A stretch of 14,786 bases of DNA from Candidatus Heimdallarchaeota archaeon. GTDB lineage: Archaea > Asgardarchaeota > Heimdallarchaeia > Heimdallarchaeales > Heimdallarchaeaceae. The stretch is taken from positions 1 through 14,786 of the forward strand of contig DXJF01000129.1 of the NCBI GenBank assembly GCA_019057375.1, written 5' to 3'. The position numbers and the translations under genes are program-made. Shown here one piece after another: positions 1-8,949 of this stretch; positions within the stretch are counted from its first letter, which is position 1; each line of letters begins with the position of its first letter. The notes beneath the pieces are model-generated. The model had not been told where the DNA came from, did not search any database, and saw nothing but the letters and a program-made list of their open reading frames with translations.

Positions 1-1
1 C

Positions 2-946
2 TAATGTTGTTAATTGTGTTATTTTTCCTAGTATTTCTATTAATCCATGTTTCCCCATTAGTTGCAATATTTCTTCACTTACAGGTTCATTTATTTCTAT
101 TTTTGAAACTAATTCTGTTCTTATCTGGATTTTTTCCCTTACTATTTTGCTCATCTGTTCTACTTCTTCTGTTGAGTAATAGATTGGATCTAATGTTCCT
201 ATTTTTTTCTCTCTTTCTAGTTTCTCTACTTTTTCTTCTAGTTCATCTCTTTCTTTGTTTAGTATGTATACATATCTTATTACTTCATATACCATACCTA
301 TTACAAATCCCCCGAACATAGTATAAATTGTCCAGAATAACCTCCCTACTCCTGAACTCCAGATGACTAGTTTTATCTCTACCTCTTTTTCTTGTGTTGG
401 TGCATAATAAACAAAATAGTACATTCTCTTTTCTTCTAACCTAAACGTTTCATTAAATCCTCCCTGCGTTACTCTGAACTCTTGTACTTCATTTAATAAC
501 ACATATCCTGCATCTATCCAGTTTACGAATTCTTCATTTGTTGTATAGAAATAAACTATTGTTCCATCTTCAGATAGATCTACATCCATATCTATCCAGT
601 TATTTTCATACTTGTTTTCGTACCACCATACATAATATTGGTTCTGTTGTAAATTTATTGTTTCTTTGATTAGAGTATTTTTCCCATATGCTGCCACAAA
701 CATTAAAACAATTACACTAATCAGTATCACTCCAGAGATTTTTTCTCTATTCTTGTCAAGTTTTTTCAGTATTTTTCTTATTTTTTTGACTGTTCTTCTT
801 ATTCTTTCTTTCCATTTCTTTGGAATTTCAAACTCTACTATGAACCTCACCACAACTCCTTTTCCCCTCATTGTATTTCTACAATCTATTAAGAATAATA
901 ATCCCAAAATAGAAACTGAACTTTGTATTAGAATTTCTTTCCACAT
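2..946 (-). CDS. Hypothetical membrane protein, >315 aa, 3' end runs off the window (not in ORF track)
   Basis: Hand translation shows 315 codons without a stop, from ATG 946 (MWKEILIQSSVSILGLLFLID...) to the window edge. Strong SD GGAGGTGA at 951-958. Three hydrophobic segments, an aromatic-rich beta-type segment and an E/K coiled coil (LNKERDELEEKVEKLEREKK). Confidence 0.85.
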   Translation of the reverse strand, partial: MWKEILIQSSVSILGLLFLIDCRNTMRGKGVVVRFIVEFEIPKKWKERIRRTVKKIRKILKKLDKNREKISGVILISVIVLMFVAAYGKNTLIKETINLQQNQYYVWWYENKYENNWIDMDVDLSEDGTIVYFYTTNEEFVNWIDAGYVLLNEVQEFRVTQGGFNETFRLEEKRMYYFVYYAPTQEKEVEIKLVIWSSGVGRLFWTIYTMFGGFVIGMVYEVIRYVYILNKERDELEEKVEKLEREKKIGTLDPIYYSTEEVEQMSKIVREKIQIRTELVSKIEINEPVSEEILQLMGKHGLIEILGKITQLTTL

Positions 947-950
947 ATCC

Positions 951-1040
951 TCACCTCCCTATCCTTTTAATTCCATTGTGAAATATTAATTCTGAAATTC
1001 CATTGCAAGTTTTTTTCTCTCTGTTTTCTTTTTTATTCAT
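951..1040 (-). CDS. Possible 29-aa peptide (MNKKENREKKTCNGISELIFHNGIKRIGR)
   Basis: The ATG overlaps the end of the upstream 51-aa ORF, and its TGA lies in the SD of the next gene. It fills the operon gap exactly but is very short. Confidence 0.35.
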   Translation of the reverse strand: MNKKENREKKTCNGISELIFHNGIKRIGR

Positions 1041-1188
1041 TCCCTTCCCTCTTTTTCCATTTCAAACCCAAACCTATTTTTTCTCTTAATTTCCTCTCCA
1101 ATGAGCTTTCTTTGATTTGAATACCTTCTAACACAATTATACACCAAACCAACCCTAAGGTCAAAGCTACTCCTAATAGATCTATCAA
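1033..1188 (-). CDS. 51-aa single-pass membrane peptide (not in ORF track)
   Basis: TTG start preceded by GGAGGGG, with a TTGA overlap with the stop of 1185..1499. Translation: MIDLLGVALTLGLVWCIIVLEGIQIKESSLERKLREKIGLGLKWKKREGNE. Confidence 0.6.
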   Translation of the reverse strand: MIDLLGVALTLGLVWCIIVLEGIQIKESSLERKLREKIGLGLKWKKREGNE

Positions 1189-1499
1189 CTTATCCCCTCC
1201 GCTAACAAGTGTCCTATTGTCCTTTCTGTCATCTCGAACACTTTTATTATCTCTTCACTCTCATGGATCAGTTCATGTAGTTTCTTCAGTTTTATTTCCC
1301 TTCCCATTGTGTCCACGAATACTATCTCATAACTCCATGCTCTCTTCTCACTCTCTTCTATCATCCATCCCTTCTGTTCCTCGAAGAAGTTCTTCAAGAA
1401 GAATTGTAATCCGTCTACTGTTTTTATCTTCTGTCTTTTTAGTTCTATCCTTCCCTCTTTCCCTTCCACATAGATCACAAAGACCATTTTCCAGTTCAT
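1185..1499 (-). CDS. Hypothetical protein, 104 aa
   Basis: ORF track. Natural-looking composition; first gene of the coupled operon, downstream of a TATA-containing motif. Confidence 0.75.
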   Translation of the reverse strand: MNWKMVFVIYVEGKEGRIELKRQKIKTVDGLQFFLKNFFEEQKGWMIEESEKRAWSYEIVFVDTMGREIKLKKLHELIHESEEIIKVFEMTERTIGHLLAEGIS

Positions 1500-1530
1500 T
1501 TTGTCTCTATTTCATTTATTAGCACTTTTG

Positions 1531-1573
1531 TTTATAAATGTGGGAAAGTTTTTTTCTCGAGTTTATAAATCAA
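1531..1573. promoter_or_regulatory. Copy 1 of ~44-bp repeated promoter-like motif (two TTTATAAA boxes)
   Basis: TTTATAAATGTGGGAAAGTTTTTTTCTCGAGTTTATAAATCAA; similar to 3693-3736. Confidence 0.55.
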
Positions 1574-1583
1574 TTTACGAATT

Positions 1584-1672
1584 AGTGGTTGAAGCTGGCA
1601 AACCCTTAAAATTCATTCTCAATCATATAACTTATCATACTTCTTAGCTGGCTTCAACTCACTCTTTTTTCT
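1584..1672 (+). ncRNA. Stem-loop plus U-tract; candidate small RNA or terminator
   Basis: GTTGAAGCTGGC (1588-1599) pairs with GCTGGCTTCAAC (1647-1658): 12 bp with two G-U pairs on the plus strand, extended by AGTG/CACT and followed by CTTTTTTCTT. Confidence 0.35.
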
Positions 1673-2692
1673 TCATCTTATTCCTTGAAAAATCTGCTTA
1701 ATTTTCTCAAACTCAATATTTTTTCCATGTTTTTCGATTAGCTGTAATTTTGGTTTTTCATCTAGTTTTGAATGATCTATGAGTAACCCTACAAGTGTAT
1801 TAGATTTTTGAATAATGTAGGTGAATATCAACGAATTGGTCATATATTCTTTAATTTTGTCATCTGTAAGCTTGTTTCTTCTATAAAGGTCAACATTACC
1901 TCCAATTGACATCAGCACTTCATGATGCTTTTGTTCTTGAATTATTTTCTCTTGATTTATAAGATTATAAAATTGTTTTCTAGTTAAGTCTTCTAAATCC
2001 TTACTCGCTTTTTTGTAATTTTTCAGACTAACATCCCTTTCCAGTGATTTTAAAAGATAATCTACTGTATCCCACTTACTGCGATCAGAAGTGATCTCAT
2101 ATTGATATGGGTAGTTTATTATGTCATTAAAGTCAACTGAATCGAGACTAAAACCATTTTTAGGATACCAAAAATAAATTATGAAAGGCTTTTGTATTTC
2201 TTTACATGCTTTCCTTGCTAATGCTTTTCTTATGGTCCAATGAGCATAAGAAGAATTTACTATTCCTACAGCTTCATCTGCTTTTATTTTTGCTTCTTTT
2301 TCATTAAAAGAATCATCACTTCTTAGAGTAGTTTTTTCATCAAATTGTTTCATTGTTTTTCTTAAAGAATGTGTGCATTCAATTTCAAATTCCAAAATTG
2401 GATTCTTTATTTCTATATCTGTAGTTTCATCTGAGCTTGTTTGAACGAATTCTGGATTTAATGATATTAGATAATTGAATAATCTTATCTCTAACAATAT
2501 ACCTACTACATTTTCTATTTGATCGTTTAGAGTAATCCATGAAACTAATCTGTTATGAAATTCTGATTTTCTATCTTGACAACTAATTCCCTGACATTTG
2601 GATAAACATTCAGAGACAAACCCAATATTATTGTAGGCATATTTATTTTGAATTAAGTATTGTTCAAATCTTGTTAGAGAATGGTTATTCAT
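1673..2692 (-). CDS. Hypothetical protein, 339 aa; possible PD-(D/E)xK-fold nuclease-like
   Basis: ORF track. The motif LEIRLFNYL...TDIEIK...EIECT resembles the E...(P)D-x10-12-ExK/T spacing of restriction-endonuclease-like folds (inference). Confidence 0.8.
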   Translation of the reverse strand: MNNHSLTRFEQYLIQNKYAYNNIGFVSECLSKCQGISCQDRKSEFHNRLVSWITLNDQIENVVGILLEIRLFNYLISLNPEFVQTSSDETTDIEIKNPILEFEIECTHSLRKTMKQFDEKTTLRSDDSFNEKEAKIKADEAVGIVNSSYAHWTIRKALARKACKEIQKPFIIYFWYPKNGFSLDSVDFNDIINYPYQYEITSDRSKWDTVDYLLKSLERDVSLKNYKKASKDLEDLTRKQFYNLINQEKIIQEQKHHEVLMSIGGNVDLYRRNKLTDDKIKEYMTNSLIFTYIIQKSNTLVGLLIDHSKLDEKPKLQLIEKHGKNIEFEKIKQIFQGIR

Positions 2693-2713
2693 ATCCTATT
2701 ATTCTTTCTTTAA

Positions 2714-3181
2714 CTATTTAATTTGTCTGCTTTGTAACATCAATTTAATTCTTTTCCAAAAGGGAAGATATCTTTTGGTCAACTCAATATTTAGTGATAC
2801 ACTACTTTCTTCAAAAATAGGCTTATAACCACATAAAACAAATATATTATTAACTTGAGTTCCCCAATTGAGTAATACATTTCTCTTCTTTTCATCTTCT
2901 AGATTAGAATATGCTCTTGTTGAATATGAATAATTAATTTTATTTACCAAATCTGAATATATTGCCCTATGCATTTTTGTGGGTTTATATAAATGAGCAG
3001 TTAAGCTTAAAATTGTTACAACTAAATCCCGCATATAATCATAATCAAGTAAGTTTGGTTTTTCCAGTAAAGTTTTGTATTTATCTTTCAACTCTTCTGG
3101 GTAGTTCAAGCATTCTTTGACTAACTCTTTAAGGTATTCCGTTAGTTCTTCTTTACTCCCTTTCCATCCAAACCACTCCAC
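2714..3181 (-). CDS. Hypothetical protein, distal part of a longer frame (open without stop up to 3427)
   Basis: The track start is a GTG, but the frame continues 82 sense codons upstream (EIEEVKEFYKFYKSKKG...IGIGPF) to the single TGA at 3428-3430. Confidence 0.7.
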   Translation of the reverse strand: MEWFGWKGSKEELTEYLKELVKECLNYPEELKDKYKTLLEKPNLLDYDYMRDLVVTILSLTAHLYKPTKMHRAIYSDLVNKINYSYSTRAYSNLEDEKKRNVLLNWGTQVNNIFVLCGYKPIFEESSVSLNIELTKRYLPFWKRIKLMLQSRQIK

Positions 3182-3427
3182 GAATGGTCCTATTCCTATC
3201 TTTATCTCGTATCCTGATGAAGCCCAATAGACTATTTCTATTAAGTAACTCTTTATATTCCACTTCTTCCCATATTCGTTCAGTTCTCGCTCTATTTCTT
3301 TCCCTATCTCCCAAACTTTTTTTCTTGATGGTAAATTTAATGCTTTATACCTTTCTTTTATTTTCTTGCTCCTTATTCCTTTCTTTGATTTGTAGAACTT
3401 GTAAAACTCCTTTACTTCCTCTATCTC

Positions 3428-3673
3428 TCATTCTTCCTCTTTCATGCTTTCTAGAAATTCTATCGGTCTTTTCACCCATCCCCATTTACACTGGAATTTC
3501 TTGTCAAATCCTTTCTCTTCGCATCTGTTTATAACTTTTTTTAGAAACTCTTCTTTGTCTTCTATCACTTTTGGAAAGTTCAAACTTGTTTTATCCATTA
3601 TATGAGCTATGATCCTTTCATATGCTTGCTGTCTCTTTAATCCTTTTTTTGGTAAATGTAGTTCGCTCATCAT
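3428..3673 (-). CDS. Hypothetical protein, 81 aa; possibly N-terminal part of an interrupted 319-codon gene
   Basis: ORF track. Same frame as 2714..3181; the ATG lies ~21 nt from a TTTAAATA box (possible leaderless mRNA). Confidence 0.6.
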   Translation of the reverse strand: MMSELHLPKKGLKRQQAYERIIAHIMDKTSLNFPKVIEDKEEFLKKVINRCEEKGFDKKFQCKWGWVKRPIEFLESMKEEE

Positions 3674-3692
3674 CTAGTTATTTTTCATTTTC

Positions 3693-3736
3693 TATTTAAA
3701 GGTGGAAAGTTTGTTTTTCTCTAGTTTATATATCAA
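3693..3736. promoter_or_regulatory. Copy 2 of ~44-bp repeated promoter-like motif
   Basis: TATTTAAAGGTGGAAAGTTTGTTTTTCTCTAGTTTATATATCAA; its last 19 nt match copy 1 at 17/19. Confidence 0.55.
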
Positions 3737-3777
3737 ACTGCTTATTATCATTCGAGACCTAGCAAATGGTTTCAAAG

Positions 3778-3983
3778 CATATTGGATCAACCTTGCTAAG
3801 GTTGTTTACCCTTAAGCCAGTGACTTAACGGGTAGGAAGTACTGCTGAAAAAGACCCATAAGAAAACAAATCAAGCAACTAGGTAGTGGTTGCAGATTCT
3901 AGTATCTCTTTCGGTAAAATTTGTTTGACTTCTCACAAACGAAATAACCGATGGTTCCAATATGATGGGTCTAAGCAGCTTCC
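3778..3983 (+). ncRNA. Unidentified multibranched, pseudoknotted structured RNA candidate
   Basis: Helices read by eye: CAACCTT/AAGGTTG; TACCC-TTAAG/CTTAA-GGGTA; GGAAG/CTTCC; CTGCT/AGCAG; AGACCCAT/ATGGGTCT; GCAAC/GTTGC; AGAT/ATCT; TCGGT/ACCGA; GTTTG/CAAAC; pseudoknot CATATTGGA (3778-86)/TCCAATATG (3956-64). Strand inferred from the flanking TATA and U-rich tail. Confidence 0.6.
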
Positions 3984-4082
3984 ATTACTTCTTTTATGAC
4001 ACTAGTTTCCTTCTTGATGTGTTTTTATATTCTCTTTTGATTGAATCTATAAGTCGAATAAGAGTCAATCGAAAGTGATGAG

Positions 4083-6761
4083 ATGAAGGATTCCAAGAAT
4101 TTTAAAAAGAAGAAAAGTGGATTCTCTTCACTATCGTCTCATAAACCTCCTAATTATGCAAGAAGTTCTATCTTTCTCACCATATTACCATATTTTTTTG
4201 TTCTATCAGTGGGGGTGGCTACTTTTATCTTTCTTTTCCCAGAAGTTATATCAAGAGTATTTCCTTCTTTTTCATTTGATTTAGTTGCTTTTTTCACCAA
4301 TTTAGGACAAAAAATCAGTGATCCAATTCAAAGAATATTCTCAAAGGTAGGATTGACTATTATTGCAATCTCAGGAAGTTTCATTTTGGGCTGGTTCTTT
4401 TCTCCATATATAATGTCAAAAAGTAAGAACACTTTTTGTCAAAGAAAATTGTTTTTTCCTTTTTATTATAAAGTTACAAGTGTTCTATTTGTTTCTAATA
4501 CAGATACTGAAGTGTTAAGACAACCTCATCATTCTACTCTTTTTCATGCTGAATTCTTTCCATTTATTGCTGCGAGTAGCAAGACTATTCAGATGATAGT
4601 ACTGAAATATAAATCAACAGTAGGGATCTATTTCACTATTACAATGAAAGGTTTTTCCAGTAAGAAACTTACTAGTGCCATTCAACGTAAAATGCTGTAT
4701 ATAGCAAACTACCTAGACACCTATTATTCTAGAGCTAGTGAAATATTATCAGCTGAGCAAACAAAGATGCTTCTTGAGGTTTTCCATAAAATGAAATTCA
4801 AATCCTCTCTTGCTATACATCTTGAAGATATATCTCTAATGGATTTAATATACAGCACTCTCTCAAAAGAAGCTTTTACTGACAATTTTTACATATCACT
4901 TATTGCTAATAGAAAGATAAAAGGTTCAGATACTTTTCTTTTCCAGTTTGATTCCTTTTCTGATAATAAGAAAGCTTTAGAGTATTTCAGACATGCTACA
5001 GGTTTTTCTAAAAAATCCTCTTTAAGCAAAAAACAACTTGTAGAAACCGAGACAATGTCAAGGTATATTTTCATCCCTTTAAACTATCAAGGAACGTTTC
5101 CTCTTTATTCTAGTAAGATAACAACCTCTCAAGAGGATTCTCAATCCATTCTTTTAGGACATGAGAGTAGAAGTGGATTTACAGTAGATGAAATTTCAAT
5201 TGAAGCTTCCCAACTCCTATACAATACTGAAATTTATGGAATGATAGGTCAAGGAAAAACTAGATTAGTAACTAGTATTATTGACCAACTCTTGCAATAC
5301 AGTATCCCATGTTTGATATTTGATATCAAGGGAGAATATGCTGCAACTTTCGTTAATGAACCTGGTGTTGAGATCTTTACAATGGGGGAACCTCACCCTT
5401 TGTGCATCAACCTTTTTGATACTGCAAATGAAGATGATGTACGAAGCACTCTTCTCATCATTGAAGAGATGATGGCAACCTCAAATCAAGAATTCAGTCC
5501 ATCGATGAAGAATCTCTTTGAAACAGCTCTCTTCAAAACTCACCAAGACGAAGAGCGCTCCTTAGAAACTTTTGTTAACCACCTACTTACACTAGCTAAA
5601 CAAAACCGTCATATTTCCTCCATCCAGCACACTCTAGACGCAGTTCTTAACAGAATAAATTTTATCTTCAATCCAATCAATTTTGAGGTTTTAGGAGTAA
5701 ATGAAACCACCTTAGATTTTGATCTCTTAAATCAAGAAAAGAGTATCATTCTTGATCTAAGTCAATTTCAAAGAAGAGCAGCAAGACCCTCAGATATTTT
5801 TCTCATATGCAATTTGATTCTCAAGATGTTCTATCGTTTTGCTTCAGCTCAAGAGCTTACGAGTAAGTTACGTTATGTTGTCGTTTTAGAAGAAGCAATC
5901 AATATTATCCCTCATTTCTACAGAACTGAAAGTTCTGCTTCACTAATTACTGCTGAAAACAGTTTCTTACTTGGTAGATCTTTAGGTATAGGTCACGTGA
6001 CTATTTCTCAGATGTGGGACAGTGTTAGTCAAATTGTTCATGCTAATTCAGCAACAAAGATTGTTTTTCGTTCAGGAGGAAGGATTGATAAACTTACCTC
6101 AGCTTTGAATCTGCAAGAGAAAGATTTCAGTAGACTAAAGATTCTTCCAAAAAGACATTGTTTTGTAAGTGGTGATCATCAGACAATAGAAATAGTCACC
6201 TTAGACTTTTTGAAAGAACCATTGAATAGACAACAATACACTGTTTCTCTCAAGAAAAAGTATCACTATAGTAGCTATCCGTTGTTATACTCTAGTTTTA
6301 TAGCTATGAGAACATCTCTTTATGAAAAGATCTCAGAATCGAAAAAACAACCTAAGAATAAAAGTAAGCAAGAGAAATCAAAACCTACCAATGCGAATCT
6401 ACCAAATAGAAAGACTCTACAAAGTAAAAGAGATAACAAGATTGAAAATCAGGAAGCCATCATATCTTCAAGTATTCCTAAATCTGAGGAAGACAGTGTC
6501 TGTAATACTTTTTGTTCATTAAAATCACAAGAACAAACTTGTTTTGACACCAGATCCAGTGCACAAATTGTTTATTCTGTTGTATTGAAAGAATTTTCAA
6601 TGTTTGAAATTGAGCAAGCTATTCTTGGAACAACACATATTACAATAGAAGATTTGCTGAAAAAAGTTACTTTGGAGAAAAAACTGCCATATAACAGAAA
6701 TGTACTATTTTGTGCACAAAGAGAATTGATTAATTTTCTGATGGAAAAGGACTTGTCATAA
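4083..6761 (+). CDS. Membrane-anchored HerA/FtsK-superfamily (DUF87/VirB4/TrwB-like) P-loop ATPase, 892 aa
   Basis: Two N-terminal TM segments; Walker A GMIGQGKT (5238-5261); FDIKGEY; Walker B VVVLEEA; GRSLGIG..TISQ and NSATKIVFR motifs typical of HerA-family helicase-like ATPases. Confidence 0.85.
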   Translation: MKDSKNFKKKKSGFSSLSSHKPPNYARSSIFLTILPYFFVLSVGVATFIFLFPEVISRVFPSFSFDLVAFFTNLGQKISDPIQRIFSKVGLTIIAISGSFILGWFFSPYIMSKSKNTFCQRKLFFPFYYKVTSVLFVSNTDTEVLRQPHHSTLFHAEFFPFIAASSKTIQMIVLKYKSTVGIYFTITMKGFSSKKLTSAIQRKMLYIANYLDTYYSRASEILSAEQTKMLLEVFHKMKFKSSLAIHLEDISLMDLIYSTLSKEAFTDNFYISLIANRKIKGSDTFLFQFDSFSDNKKALEYFRHATGFSKKSSLSKKQLVETETMSRYIFIPLNYQGTFPLYSSKITTSQEDSQSILLGHESRSGFTVDEISIEASQLLYNTEIYGMIGQGKTRLVTSIIDQLLQYSIPCLIFDIKGEYAATFVNEPGVEIFTMGEPHPLCINLFDTANEDDVRSTLLIIEEMMATSNQEFSPSMKNLFETALFKTHQDEERSLETFVNHLLTLAKQNRHISSIQHTLDAVLNRINFIFNPINFEVLGVNETTLDFDLLNQEKSIILDLSQFQRRAARPSDIFLICNLILKMFYRFASAQELTSKLRYVVVLEEAINIIPHFYRTESSASLITAENSFLLGRSLGIGHVTISQMWDSVSQIVHANSATKIVFRSGGRIDKLTSALNLQEKDFSRLKILPKRHCFVSGDHQTIEIVTLDFLKEPLNRQQYTVSLKKKYHYSSYPLLYSSFIAMRTSLYEKISESKKQPKNKSKQEKSKPTNANLPNRKTLQSKRDNKIENQEAIISSSIPKSEEDSVCNTFCSLKSQEQTCFDTRSSAQIVYSVVLKEFSMFEIEQAILGTTHITIEDLLKKVTLEKKLPYNRNVLFCAQRELINFLMEKDLS

Positions 6762-6767
6762 AATTTC

Positions 6768-6862
6768 TTTGGGGTTTTTAAGGTGAAGTGCATTCTAGTA
6801 TGCAGATAGGCAAGAATTACACTCAAAACCCAAACCCGTAATTCTTCGCTTATCACCTAAAA
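6768..6862. other. Structured element upstream of tnpB (candidate left end or ncRNA)
   Basis: AGGTGA/TCACCT encloses TGCAT/ATGCA and AAGAATTAC/GTAATTCTT hairpins; the loop CCCAAA/AAAACCC can pair with upstream TTTGGGGTTTT. Confidence 0.4.
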
Positions 6863-6944
6863 GGAAAAGGAGATGAAAAAAGAGATTAGGTAGTTCTTCT
6901 GAAATCTTATTCGAATTCCTGGAGCAATTGTACACGTAGAAACT

Positions 6945-6997
6945 ATCGTTGGTTCCTCTACTAGTTTCGGATTGAGTCTAGAAGAGGAACCAATGAT
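6945..6997. repeat. Long inverted repeat/hairpin
   Basis: ATCGTTGGTTCCTCT-A-CTAG...CTAG-A-AGAGGAACCAATGAT, with a perfect 11-bp core. Confidence 0.7.
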
Positions 6998-7057
6998 TTT
7001 GATTTTTCGAAAGAGGTTCAGTGTTTATCAACACTTACAATTTTGGAGGTAAAAATC

Positions 7058-8617
7058 TTGAAAATTGAAGAAAGTAAACAAGAAGAACTACTATTTGAAG
7101 ACAAGAAACTTGGAGAAAATGGAAAAGTCAAAAGCACCTCTCAAGCACCATTAGTTACATTCTATGAGACTGTTTCTCTGAGAATCAAGACGGAACTGAT
7201 GTCTGTTAGAGAATGCGAAAGGTTGAAGAGAATAACCGCAAGAGATACAAGGATCATCAGAGACTACCTCAGAATCATCAATCACAACGAGGAAAAAATT
7301 CTGAAAAAAGACGGTAAAGTCAACATATCCCTTTTGGATAAACTGACTTTAACTACTTCAAAGAAAAATGAGAACGAGATAAGGTCATCTGTTCCTCATG
7401 ACTTGAAGAAGCGTTATCCCCGTTGTTCCCATGATGAATTCCAAGAATGCAGTAGTAAAGCCATCTCGACTTATGAAAGCTGGAAAGCAAAACAGGATGT
7501 TTCCAAAAAGGAACTGAGTAGACCAGAATTCAAGAAGAAAACTCCCCGACCCATGTTCAAAGGAACTGGAAGTAGAGGTACGATCAAGGTACATTCAGAA
7601 CCTGAAAATACCGAAGCTATACTTTGGCTGGATATAAGGGATTCGCTTGACACAAGAAGATCTGACGAACGAACTGATTCGAAAAAATCTGGTACAAAAA
7701 ACCATAACAGACTATGGTTACCTTTAGCTTTCTCCCCTTATCACGAGAAGAAGCTGAAACCAGAGAACATCAAAAAGGTGGAACTCATACATAAATCCAA
7801 AGAACAACAGTGGTGGGCACATTTCACCCTCATGTATTCTGTCCCCAGCTACCACTCTACTAACCCTCCCGCAGTGTTAGGAGTAGATCTAGGGATAAAG
7901 AAGACAGCTGTTGCAGTATTACTTACACCTACGGGGAAAGTAATAATGGATGAACTCCGCTTCATTGTCAATAAGGAGAGACAGTCTAAAATTTGGCAAC
8001 TAGAAAAACAGATCGGAGATACTCAGAGGAAGTTGAACAAAAGTCTCAACAATGGTCAGCACACTGAACAGCTTAACGCTACTCTCTTTCTTCTGCGTAA
8101 AAGACTTCGTTCTGTTACTGAACAAGAACTGGGGCATGCAGTTAATCAATTAGTTGATTTCATTCTCCAGCTGAAGAAGAGTTATAATCTGTTTGTAGCT
8201 GTTGGCTATCCTAAAAACATCCGAAAGAGTCAACCTCTGGGCAGTGGAAACAAATCCCACAGAAGACGTCTACATAAATGGTGTTATCGTCTCTTTACTA
8301 CTAAACTTAAGTACAAGCTTAAACACCATGGATTTGAATCCCATCGAGTAGTAGCTGTTAATGAAAGCTGGACTTCTCAGACCTGTTCCAGGTGCAATTC
8401 TACAAATACTACCCGTACAGGACAAGGACAATTCAATTGCCATGATTGCAACTACGAACTAGATGCAGATCTGAATGGAGCAAAGAATATAGGGAAGAGG
8501 TTAATCAAATATGCGTTGAAAACAACTTTCAATTTCATATTCGATACACTAACAGAAGAATGCCACACGCTACTACACTACAACTGTTTCGAGCCCTTAG
8601 GCCAATGGCTTGAGTGA
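7058..8617 (+). CDS. tnpB: RNA-guided endonuclease TnpB, large (519 aa), rearranged RuvC-II
   Basis: RuvC-I LGVDLGIK; RuvC-II position VAVGYP (G instead of E); downstream E in VNESWTSQTC; Zn finger CSRC..CHDC; RuvC-III DADLNGAKNI. Start moved from 7043 to the TTG at 7058 because GGAGGT lies at 7045-7050. Confidence 0.92.
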   Translation: MKIEESKQEELLFEDKKLGENGKVKSTSQAPLVTFYETVSLRIKTELMSVRECERLKRITARDTRIIRDYLRIINHNEEKILKKDGKVNISLLDKLTLTTSKKNENEIRSSVPHDLKKRYPRCSHDEFQECSSKAISTYESWKAKQDVSKKELSRPEFKKKTPRPMFKGTGSRGTIKVHSEPENTEAILWLDIRDSLDTRRSDERTDSKKSGTKNHNRLWLPLAFSPYHEKKLKPENIKKVELIHKSKEQQWWAHFTLMYSVPSYHSTNPPAVLGVDLGIKKTAVAVLLTPTGKVIMDELRFIVNKERQSKIWQLEKQIGDTQRKLNKSLNNGQHTEQLNATLFLLRKRLRSVTEQELGHAVNQLVDFILQLKKSYNLFVAVGYPKNIRKSQPLGSGNKSHRRRLHKWCYRLFTTKLKYKLKHHGFESHRVVAVNESWTSQTCSRCNSTNTTRTGQGQFNCHDCNYELDADLNGAKNIGKRLIKYALKTTFNFIFDTLTEECHTLLHYNCFEPLGQWLE

Positions 8618-8902
8618 TTCTGCAAGGAATGCATCATTTAGTAAAATTTGATGTGCGAGGTCAAGAGTCAGTTATCTCTTTAGTTTGACTGATTCGGTAA
8701 TGAGTGCCCTTAATCAGCGATATGAACCCTTTGGACTGCTTACAGCAATGTAACTATCCCAGAAGACTGGTACTGTAACTTTACAGTTATACACCCTTGC
8801 TTACCCTTAGCGACGCCAGTTTAGGGGGAGTCCTGAAAGGATCTTCTTTAAAATCTAATGGATTTTGGAAGAGAATAACTCATCCCCAGAATTTACTTAC
8901 AT
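8618..8902 (+). ncRNA. Putative TnpB omegaRNA (right-end RNA) with candidate guide ~8883-8902
   Basis: Position 3' of tnpB matches the established omegaRNA location. Serial hairpins (GTCA-AGAG/CTCT-TGAC, TGATT/AATCA, CCAG/CTGG, CTGTA/TACAG, TCTTCTTTAAAATC/GATTTTGGAAGAGA) are followed by a U-tract. The 5' end may overlap the CDS. Confidence 0.6.
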
Positions 8903-8949
8903 CTTCTTTCCTTTTTTTTTCTACTAAAATCCCCAGAATTTGCTTACAT
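8882..8949. repeat. Imperfect direct repeat of the infB 3' end (8882-8902 vs 8929-8949, 20/21)
   Basis: ATCCCCAGAATTTACTTACAT vs ATCCCCAGAATTTGCTTACAT. On the minus strand the copies read KRKEDVSKFWG* and KRKNVSKFWGF*. Confidence 0.9.
8903..8920 (+). terminator. Oligo-T tract, candidate archaeal terminator for the tnpB/omegaRNA transcript
   Basis: CTTCTTTCCTTTTTTTTT immediately after the candidate guide. Confidence 0.45.

Follow-up and report, generated by a model that had tools for sequence, protein, structure and literature searches.

The window analysed here, i.e., the whole stretch of 14,786 nucleotides (nt) at positions 1 to 14,786 of contig DXJF01000129.1, belongs to a genome of Candidatus Heimdallarchaeota archaeon (GCA_019057375.1; here G000), which is assembled to 3.47 Mb in 159 contigs and is 89% complete. 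At positions 3737-3995, a preliminary description made from the letters alone had noted an unassigned multibranched RNA between divergent genes. Indeed, this flagged stretch is bordered by an open reading frame (ORF) starting at 3673 on the minus strand and by a gene for a membrane ATPase starting at 4083 on the plus strand, and an element encoding the RNA-guided nuclease TnpB follows further downstream. A check of the sequence found each of the elements named at that time in its place, namely the TATA box upstream of the RNA (TTTATATA, 3725-3732), the long trunk helix, the T-run just past the right boundary of the unit (TTTT, 3992-3995) and the TATA-like box of the ATPase gene, all on the plus strand. 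The minimum free energy (MFE) fold also reproduced the proposed helix layout, with two or three 5′ hairpins followed by an interrupted trunk that surrounds three further hairpins. The first hairpin, H1 (3754-3773), pairs GAGACC with GGTTTC through one G.U, and both the MFE and centroid folds contain the trunk, which is formed by a 5′ arm at 3835-3859 (GGAAG at 3835-39, CTGCT at 3842-46 and AGACCCAT at 3852-59, with an A-rich internal loop) and a 3′ arm at 3965-3983 (ATGGGTCT at 3965-72, AGCAG at 3974-78 and CTTCC at 3979-83).

The plus strand of 3737-3995 folds with an energy of -70.1 kcal/mol, compared with -53.8 +/- 4.6 kcal/mol for 200 dinucleotide shuffles, none of which was as good (z = -3.52), and the folding energy is therefore well beyond the shuffle control that had been proposed beforehand. 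No tRNA or tmRNA was detected in the flagged stretch by ARAGORN, and it contains no ORF longer than 38 aa. The Rfam search with cmscan, also suggested in advance, returned no family at the gathering score, and permissive filters gave only noise with E>1. The RNA is thus still unassigned as regards Rfam; what no longer holds is that its origin has no name, since it can now be described as a reversed and internally deleted TnpB element. In our analysis, the flagged stretch represents a genuine gene for a structured RNA that is so far uncatalogued, with a transcript predicted on the plus strand.

The gene starts with a promoter (3714-3748, plus strand) made of a B recognition element (BRE)-like motif, TTTTTCTCTAG, and the TATA box, which is conserved in all nine members of the RNA family and also marks the left boundary of the repeated unit. 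Weak matches to 3714-3748 occur throughout the genome, and their consensus, TTTTTCTCgAGTTTATAwA-TCAAAcT, precedes numerous unrelated ORFs at a distance of 20-34 nt from the start codon. Note that 3715-3748, which recurs in many relatives, was also considered as a mobile-element end and rejected, since it corresponds to this generic promoter consensus before unrelated genes. Using the distance from TATA to start at leaderless ORFs located behind other copies of the promoter, the transcription start site is placed at 3755 +/- 5, which gives a predicted multibranched noncoding RNA (ncRNA) of ~235 nt (3755-3991, plus strand) ending at the unit boundary or at the T-run. The closest copy, in genome G024, is 94% identical to the window across 3714-3991 only, with unrelated flanks on both sides, so that the unit (promoter plus structured RNA, ~245-280 bp) has sharp boundaries and occupies non-syntenic loci. 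With both a consensus promoter and a T-run present and conserved, it is predicted to be an independent transcription unit. The proposal of a standalone ncRNA of the island agrees well with these data, i.e., its own consensus promoter, sharp ends at 3714 and ~3991, non-syntenic recurrence, and helices that are kept with strand-specific G.U variation. A second copy of the promoter motif occurs elsewhere in the window (1528-1672, with TCTCGAGTTTATAAA at 1554-1568). Its promoter part is 76% identical to 3690-3747 and is followed by a 12-bp long-range helix with G.U pairs (GTTGAAGCTGGC ... GCTGGCTTCAAC) and then by a T-run, which makes it a candidate separate small RNA gene of ~95 nt on the plus strand.

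The recommended collection of homologues and covariance modelling yielded nine copies confined to one Heimdallarchaeota genus, in which 5 of the 25 genomes carry the RNA, while the 58 other genomes of the class have none. Three copies form type A (the window, G024a and contig C159 of G000) and six form type B (contig C117 of G000, G024b, two copies in G004, one of them partial, G007 and G008). Both types can be aligned over the promoter, H1, the core of the second hairpin H2 (AAGCCAkTGACTTAA) and the 5′ arm of the trunk. A covariance model of the 5′ module, searched against 31 family genomes and 83 class genomes, added no further member; one extra match in G030 was rejected, as it falls inside an ABC-ATPase ORF. 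A loose pattern scan of genome contigs gave mostly chance matches and one real member (G007), and two pattern scans of JGI metagenomes gave zero family matches. The copies lie in variable regions, next to genes as diverse as L44e/sucC, RING, SAP, S9 peptidase, NACHT-LRR, TPR, methylase and CHAT fragments. In two species, the type B RNA gene is convergent to a ~270-nt multi-copy repeat that, when read by eye, encodes a short ORF of ~78 aa on the minus strand, found at G000:C117:37985-38257, C77:12163-12433, C132:2656-2925, C84:4999-5253 and G024:C23:9884-10153, with partial copies at C81:11701-11797 and C153:25480-25575.

Comparison of the copies also bears on the transcribed strand. H1 reads GAGAC-loop-GTCTC in the C159 copy and in all type B copies, and its variants form G.U pairs on the plus strand only. 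RNAalifold applied to six type B sequences (75-87% identity) recovered H1, H2 and a trunk of 13+6 bp, in which 99.5% of 197 cells are paired (compared with 30-45% with slid partners) and 14 further pair types occur. Within these type B helices, 12 columns show G.U on the plus strand and 1 shows A.C (binomial p 0.002), with the caveat that the helices themselves had been predicted on the plus strand. In addition, the plus-strand MFE is better than that of the minus strand by 5-15 kcal/mol in each of the five full type B copies, and the type B consensus folds reach -46.3 kcal/mol (plus strand) versus -37.7 kcal/mol (minus strand). The trunk is kept in all full-length copies, and across types A and B, its 8-bp core displays a U-A/U.G/C-G series at two positions and a G-C to U-A exchange at a third. 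Double changes were seen in H2 (one G-C to A-U in type B) and in the third of the three enclosed hairpins, hairpin iii (one U-A to A-U between the window and G024a). The G.U bias, the stability of the plus strand and the trunk pair series argue for a plus-strand RNA. The H2 core sequence is conserved in both types yet folds in different registers, which fits selection on the sequence (i.e., its complementarity) as well as on the fold. A reading of the trunk as the bulge-helix-bulge motif of a circular RNA was rejected, as the bulges do not resemble that motif and the type B helix is continuous.

Evidence for the origin of the RNA came from BLAST against its own genome and 60 relatives, which returned short and strong matches inside a TnpB gene of the 550-aa class, on the opposite strand. 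The matches to the TnpB copy of contig C81 (28/28 and 35/37 nt) are located 1.2 kb apart in the gene and only 90 nt apart in the RNA. An nhmmer profile built from six TnpB element copies matched the flagged region and its relatives on the minus strand exclusively. Short-word BLAST gave 56 minus-strand versus 11 plus-strand matches, all of the latter within a palindromic hairpin; words shared with the tnpB flanks on the plus strand are no longer than 9-10 nt, as expected by chance, and the significant matches are all antisense.

When positions are counted from the TnpB start codon, the mapping of the RNA onto TnpB is largely colinear. The 5′ arm and loop of H1 (GAGACCTAGC, 3754-3763) are antisense to GCTAGGTC(G/T)(A/C)G, situated ~40 nt past the stop codon of TnpB, where the omegaRNA region starts. 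Then follows an inserted segment (3765-3811) antisense to TnpB coding positions +1397 to +1443, which accounts for the 28/28 match to C81, is out of order relative to TnpB and is missing in the C159 copy; it holds an AACCTT/AAGGTT hairpin (3789-3803). H2 (ACCCTTAAG-CCAGTGA-CTTAAcGGGT, 3808-3833) corresponds, according to both nhmmer and BLAST, in reverse complement to a hairpin in which the final codons of TnpB and its stop codon take part (CCCTTAGGTCAATGGCTTAAG), the full complement spanning 3808-3843; the core of H2 is shared by both subtypes and its loop is predicted to be largely open (P(unpaired) 0.87). The first two inner hairpins are formed by a segment (3881-3917) antisense to coding positions +179 to +215, with 35/37 nt matching C81 and 26/26 matching contig C73 of G007. 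The segment at 3907-3958, which includes inner hairpin iii, is antisense to positions -74 to -23 of the TnpB 5′ untranslated region (UTR) in a colinear 52-nt local alignment of 65% identity. A conserved exposed motif, GGUUCCAA, lies within it at 3953-3960; GGAACCATCG matches the complement of the 5′ UTR exactly, ATGGTTCC is conserved in both subtypes, and the exposed motif GGUUCCAAUAU has a P(unpaired) of 0.73. In type B, UUUUACCUCCU..GAAUUUA stands opposite the Shine-Dalgarno (SD) region of TnpB as an anti-Shine-Dalgarno stretch.

The 28/28 and 35/37 matches, the complement of the stop-codon hairpin and GGAACCATCG provide the extended complementarity that characterizes an antisense RNA. In contrast to these segments, neither nhmmer (--max) nor alignments found a counterpart in the RNA of the TnpB element termini or of the ~200 nt guide-proximal omegaRNA scaffold. 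The matches indicate that the RNA gene arose from a reversed TnpB/omegaRNA element stripped of most of its interior and of both termini. Whole-length RNAduplex energies were uninformative. The 9-bp pseudoknot of the preliminary description stood up in part: CATATTGGA (3778-3786, inside the inserted segment) is indeed complementary to TCCAATATG (3956-3964), but comparative support is lacking, given that the pairing shows no variation in G024a, the sole close copy, and does not exist in the remaining seven copies (the partner is missing in C159 and in type B). Moreover, in 260 nt of an AT-rich sequence, a complementary stretch of 9 nt is about what chance predicts. Thus, the pseudoknot exists as a sequence and is unsupported by comparison.

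The TnpB element of the window begins ~3 kb downstream of the RNA (6745-8885, plus strand; Pfam Cas12f1-like_TNB) and consists of a 5′ UTR (6745-7042), an ORF (7043-8617, 524 aa) and an omegaRNA region (8618-8885). Six full copies and one partial copy of this TnpB family are present in the genome, and their mutual homology bounds a unit of ~2.1 kb (~6745 to ~8885), in which the ORF lies between a 5′ UTR of 300 nt and an omegaRNA region of 265 nt that ends in AATAACTCAT. Its start (7043 and homologous sites) appears to combine an SD sequence (GGAGGT/GGAAGT), a spacer of 7-8 nt and ATG or TTG. In the 5′ UTR, ~60 nt before the SD and start, a perfect hairpin at 6945-6997 (GGTTCCTCTAC...AGAGGAACC) is invariant in 6/6 copies; the conserved GGUUCC motif of the RNA family is complementary to the 3′ arm of this hairpin. 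Protein-like similarity found by tblastn upstream of the start (IESRRGT...) falls in this structured 5′ UTR. On the whole, G000 has 27 TnpB-like (PF07282) genes in three size classes (~420-460, 520-570 and 640-750 aa).

The gene that lies as cargo between the RNA and TnpB encodes a membrane HerA/DUF87-type ATPase (4083-6761, plus strand; Pfam DUF87 and TrwB_AAD_bind). It has a separate promoter and leader outside the RNA (4012-4053, plus strand, with a TATA at 4022-30), which is conserved before ATPase copies or remnants in contigs C72, C65 and C159. After TnpB, infB/aIF5B lies on the opposite strand. The adjacency of ATPase and TnpB is kept in C65 and C72, and remnants of the ATPase 3′ end precede TnpB in C81 and in contig C140 of G007; indeed, in every informative copy, the ATPase 3′ end or a remnant stands before the TnpB 5′ UTR (window 6603-6761 and 6745-7042; G000:C81:8095-8259; G007:C140:2166-2279), which suggests that ATPase and TnpB travel together as one old unit. 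What appears as the 'left end' of the 2.1-kb TnpB repeat is perhaps not the real end of a transposon. At G000:C159:6815-6900, the promoter and start region of the ATPase (ATGAAGGATTCC) are conserved with no long ORF after them, so this gene has probably decayed; upstream of the remnant is a NACHT-LRR/nSTAND gene block, itself preceded by the C159 copy of the RNA. No empty site was found for the left edge of the island: window 1-8930 has nothing in common with the closest infB relatives (G009, G011 and G013), and the variable region already includes the first letters of the contig. Beside infB, which is 95-97% identical in these three genomes, window 1-8930 has no nucleotide counterpart, so the variable region exceeds the RNA-ATPase-TnpB block.

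We tentatively read the RNA as an island-borne antisense regulator of TnpB, an interpretation that we favour while holding it a little short of probable. The gene at 3714-3991 would express, from an archaeal promoter, a structured plus-strand RNA of ~235 nt in which a conserved scaffold (H1, H2 and the long closing trunk) carries the antisense pieces, whose counterparts in TnpB are the 5′ UTR, two stretches of coding sequence, the hairpin at the last codons and the omegaRNA start. This RNA would pair with the TnpB mRNA and/or the omegaRNA precursor, starting from the exposed motifs, i.e., the H2 loop, GGUUCCAA and, in type B, the anti-Shine-Dalgarno stretch; as a result, TnpB might be translated less, the transcript might be less stable, or omegaRNA might mature less efficiently. 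Given these exposed motifs and the long exact antisense matches to coding sequence, control of TnpB would be its most economical function. As precedents, transposon-derived trans antisense RNAs are known in Sulfolobus (PMC3674436), Halobacterium has an antisense RNA (asRNA) opposite the 5′ end of a TnpB gene (10.1101/2022.08.31.505529), and regulation of TnpB through antisense or mRNA pairing was proposed earlier (PMC10278001). The TnpB subfamily is present in 4 of the 5 RNA-bearing genomes versus 5 of the 20 others, a comparison among kin that are not independent. Co-orientation with a TnpB gene or fragment downstream, seen in three or four of the nine copies, also speaks for this interpretation.

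Several observations weigh against this interpretation. The complementarity could be mere inheritance from the parent element, without selection, and the subtype found in the window lacks the part covering the Shine-Dalgarno region and start codon. Its best match is the C81 TnpB copy, and not the neighbouring one (C80) or those of G024. One genome (G008) carries the RNA but no TnpB of the subfamily at E<=1e-30, and conversely, five genomes have the TnpB subfamily without the RNA. The family is small, with nine copies of which some are orthologous. Regarding the structure, most type B pairs are invariant and the shuffle control is not significant there, true double compensatory changes number just one or two per subtype, and the minus strand of 3737-3995 folds as well as the plus strand (z = -3.44), so folding energy alone cannot choose the strand of the window copy.

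A more far-reaching version, which we consider rather doubtful, is that of a dedicated 'anti-OMEGA' RNA, i.e., a natural structured inhibitor of an RNA-guided nuclease that derives from an inverted, whittled-down TnpB element and displays several antisense segments (5′ UTR, coding and omegaRNA start) on one scaffold. If true, it would act as a built-in brake on the same islands or as a weapon of rival islands, and would be a prokaryotic counterpart, in logic, of transposon-derived silencing loci such as piRNA clusters.

The position of the RNA suggests a different role, which seems unlikely to us: it could be an RNA module that forms the left end of a composite mobile island (RNA - cargo/ATPase - TnpB - omegaRNA) and serve the life cycle of the island rather than TnpB repression, for instance by cis pairing, within one long read-through RNA, with the 3′ end of TnpB or the start of the omegaRNA so that the two ends come together much as in IStrons, or by marking the left end for mobilization. 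The RNA is co-oriented with and upstream of a same-strand 550-class TnpB, or a fragment of one, within 3 kb in three of the nine copies (window, G007:C140 and G004:C1), and the C159 copy is followed by the ATPase-start remnant and then by the contig end; the genes to the left of the RNA differ between copies, and ATPase and TnpB form an ancestral unit. IStrons, in which TnpB-bearing IS605/IS607 elements have a group I intron on their left, provide a precedent for a structured RNA on that side combined with TnpB and omegaRNA at the right end, and the potential interplay of a left-end RNA with a right-end guide RNA is a further likeness (PMC4227781; 10.1101/2023.11.20.567912). Against this role, four of the nine copies (G024a, G024b, C117 and G008) have no TnpB within 6-8 kb downstream, the ATPase-TnpB islands of C65 and C72 have no RNA, and no empty site fixes the left edge of the island. 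In addition, the unit ends with a T-run; unlike IStrons, the RNA has its own promoter, an intergenic site and solitary copies, and the Intron_gpI covariance model gave no match on 3600-4120 even at E<=10.

The same material could also be a functionless relic, which we find improbable. In that case, an inverted TnpB copy (e.g., the degenerate arm of an old composite transposon) would have decayed behind a promoter by chance, and the fold would be inherited from its hairpin-rich parent. It is true that all parts of the RNA are traceable to TnpB sequence, that the distribution is narrow and patchy, that the window copy folds equally on both strands, and that the interior differs freely between copies (C159 and the window share little between 3872 and 3936). 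Against a relic stand a promoter kept in 9/9 copies, sharp common boundaries at unrelated loci, helix substitutions that favour plus-strand G.U by 12:1, a plus strand that is more stable in all type B copies, and a trunk retained across subtypes through U-A/U.G/C-G changes.

The preliminary description had raised the possibility of an orphan guide scaffold, which amounts to a promoter-plus-omegaRNA 'guide-only' mini-transposon, or, alternatively, the unit may be a nonautonomous IS200/IS605 mini-element on the minus strand, i.e., a miniature inverted-repeat transposable element (MITE) or a palindrome-associated transposable element (PATE). Although the unit is a discrete TnpB-derived repeat at non-syntenic loci, and although its RNA ends at the unit boundary so that flanking DNA could in principle act as guide, such readings are very unlikely. 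The first ~150-200 nt of the left end are not retained (GATTTGKCAYAAAATTTC... and the GCAAGAATTAC hairpin are unmatched), the last ~200 nt of the omegaRNA scaffold ending in AATAACTCAT are absent, and the promoter points in the antisense direction with respect to TnpB and its omegaRNA. In the 83 class genomes searched, none of the family members was located at a TnpB 3′ end, and Y1 TnpA (PF01797) had no match in the 89% complete genome, in which control profiles were positive. The 10-mer TGTCATAAAA at 3992-4001 is not common to the other copies. An initial reading as a minus-strand MITE of the TnpB element was rejected, given the absent termini and the conserved promoter on the other strand. 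As for a guide RNA, the present RNA shares with omegaRNA, reRNA and sotRNA (PMC8612924, PMC4615843) a structured body of a few hundred nt, an association with TnpB, a derivation from TnpB element sequence and an end at the repeat boundary. Unlike omegaRNA, it lies 3 kb upstream of tnpB, all its TnpB-homologous pieces have the opposite sense, the omegaRNA region contributes only ~10-15 nt, which are also antisense, and the guide-proximal scaffold end has no counterpart. The orphan-guide proposal is thus not supported, and neither it nor the MITE reading, as far as sequence comparison can tell, shows the features that define such elements.

Finally, the multibranched fold and the position upstream of the ATPase might evoke an RNA class with established catalytic or regulatory activity (group I intron, riboswitch, RNase P or signal recognition particle fragment) or the ATPase 5′ leader, but this is hardly credible, as cmscan gave nothing at the gathering score and otherwise only noise with E>1, the genes downstream of other copies are unrelated, and the ATPase owns its conserved promoter at 4012-4053.

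Among known systems, the RNA-257(1-4) genes of Sulfolobus solfataricus (PMC3674436) are likewise archaeal, intergenic and multi-copy ncRNA genes with a conserved core that resembles a portion of a transposase-type gene by homology. RNA-257 acts by extended trans base-pairing, an action only predicted for the RNA studied here; its demonstrated target is the mRNA of a host phosphate transporter, which it regulates via the 3′ UTR. In contrast, the present RNA is a multi-segment mosaic antisense to the TnpB element itself, is arranged on a multibranched scaffold and is often located beside TnpB, with a function that is so far a prediction. The proposed role also resembles that of art200 on tnpA, which, as cited in PMC10278001, is a cis-antisense brake on the 5′ region of an IS200/IS605 transcript, and the asRNA at the 5′ end of Halobacterium TnpB (10.1101/2022.08.31.505529) is similarly antisense to the 5′ region of a transcript of the IS200/IS605 family. 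Both art200, as described there, and the Halobacterium asRNA come from the opposite strand of the gene they control, whereas the RNA considered here is a separate gene situated kilobases away or at unrelated loci, and, unlike the cis-antisense RNAs of IS200/IS605, combines targets from both ends of the element. Transposon-derived antisense RNAs are therefore already known; what is new is a mosaic built on a conserved multibranched scaffold that would be aimed at the element of an RNA-guided nuclease and that frequently travels together with it. Our analysis adds two points, namely the antisense origin and the evidence on the strand.

TnpB is the ancestor of Cas12 and of the eukaryotic Fanzor nucleases and is very abundant in Asgard archaea. 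To our knowledge, little is known of how cells or elements restrain it. A conserved RNA equipped with a promoter and made of antisense TnpB pieces would provide a concrete and testable candidate for TnpB control, and, if the antisense brake works, it may offer a natural off-switch for TnpB-based genome editors. Regardless of its function, the RNA represents an uncatalogued structured family of Heimdallarchaeota that is suited to Rfam, and an example of a new RNA gene born from transposon debris.

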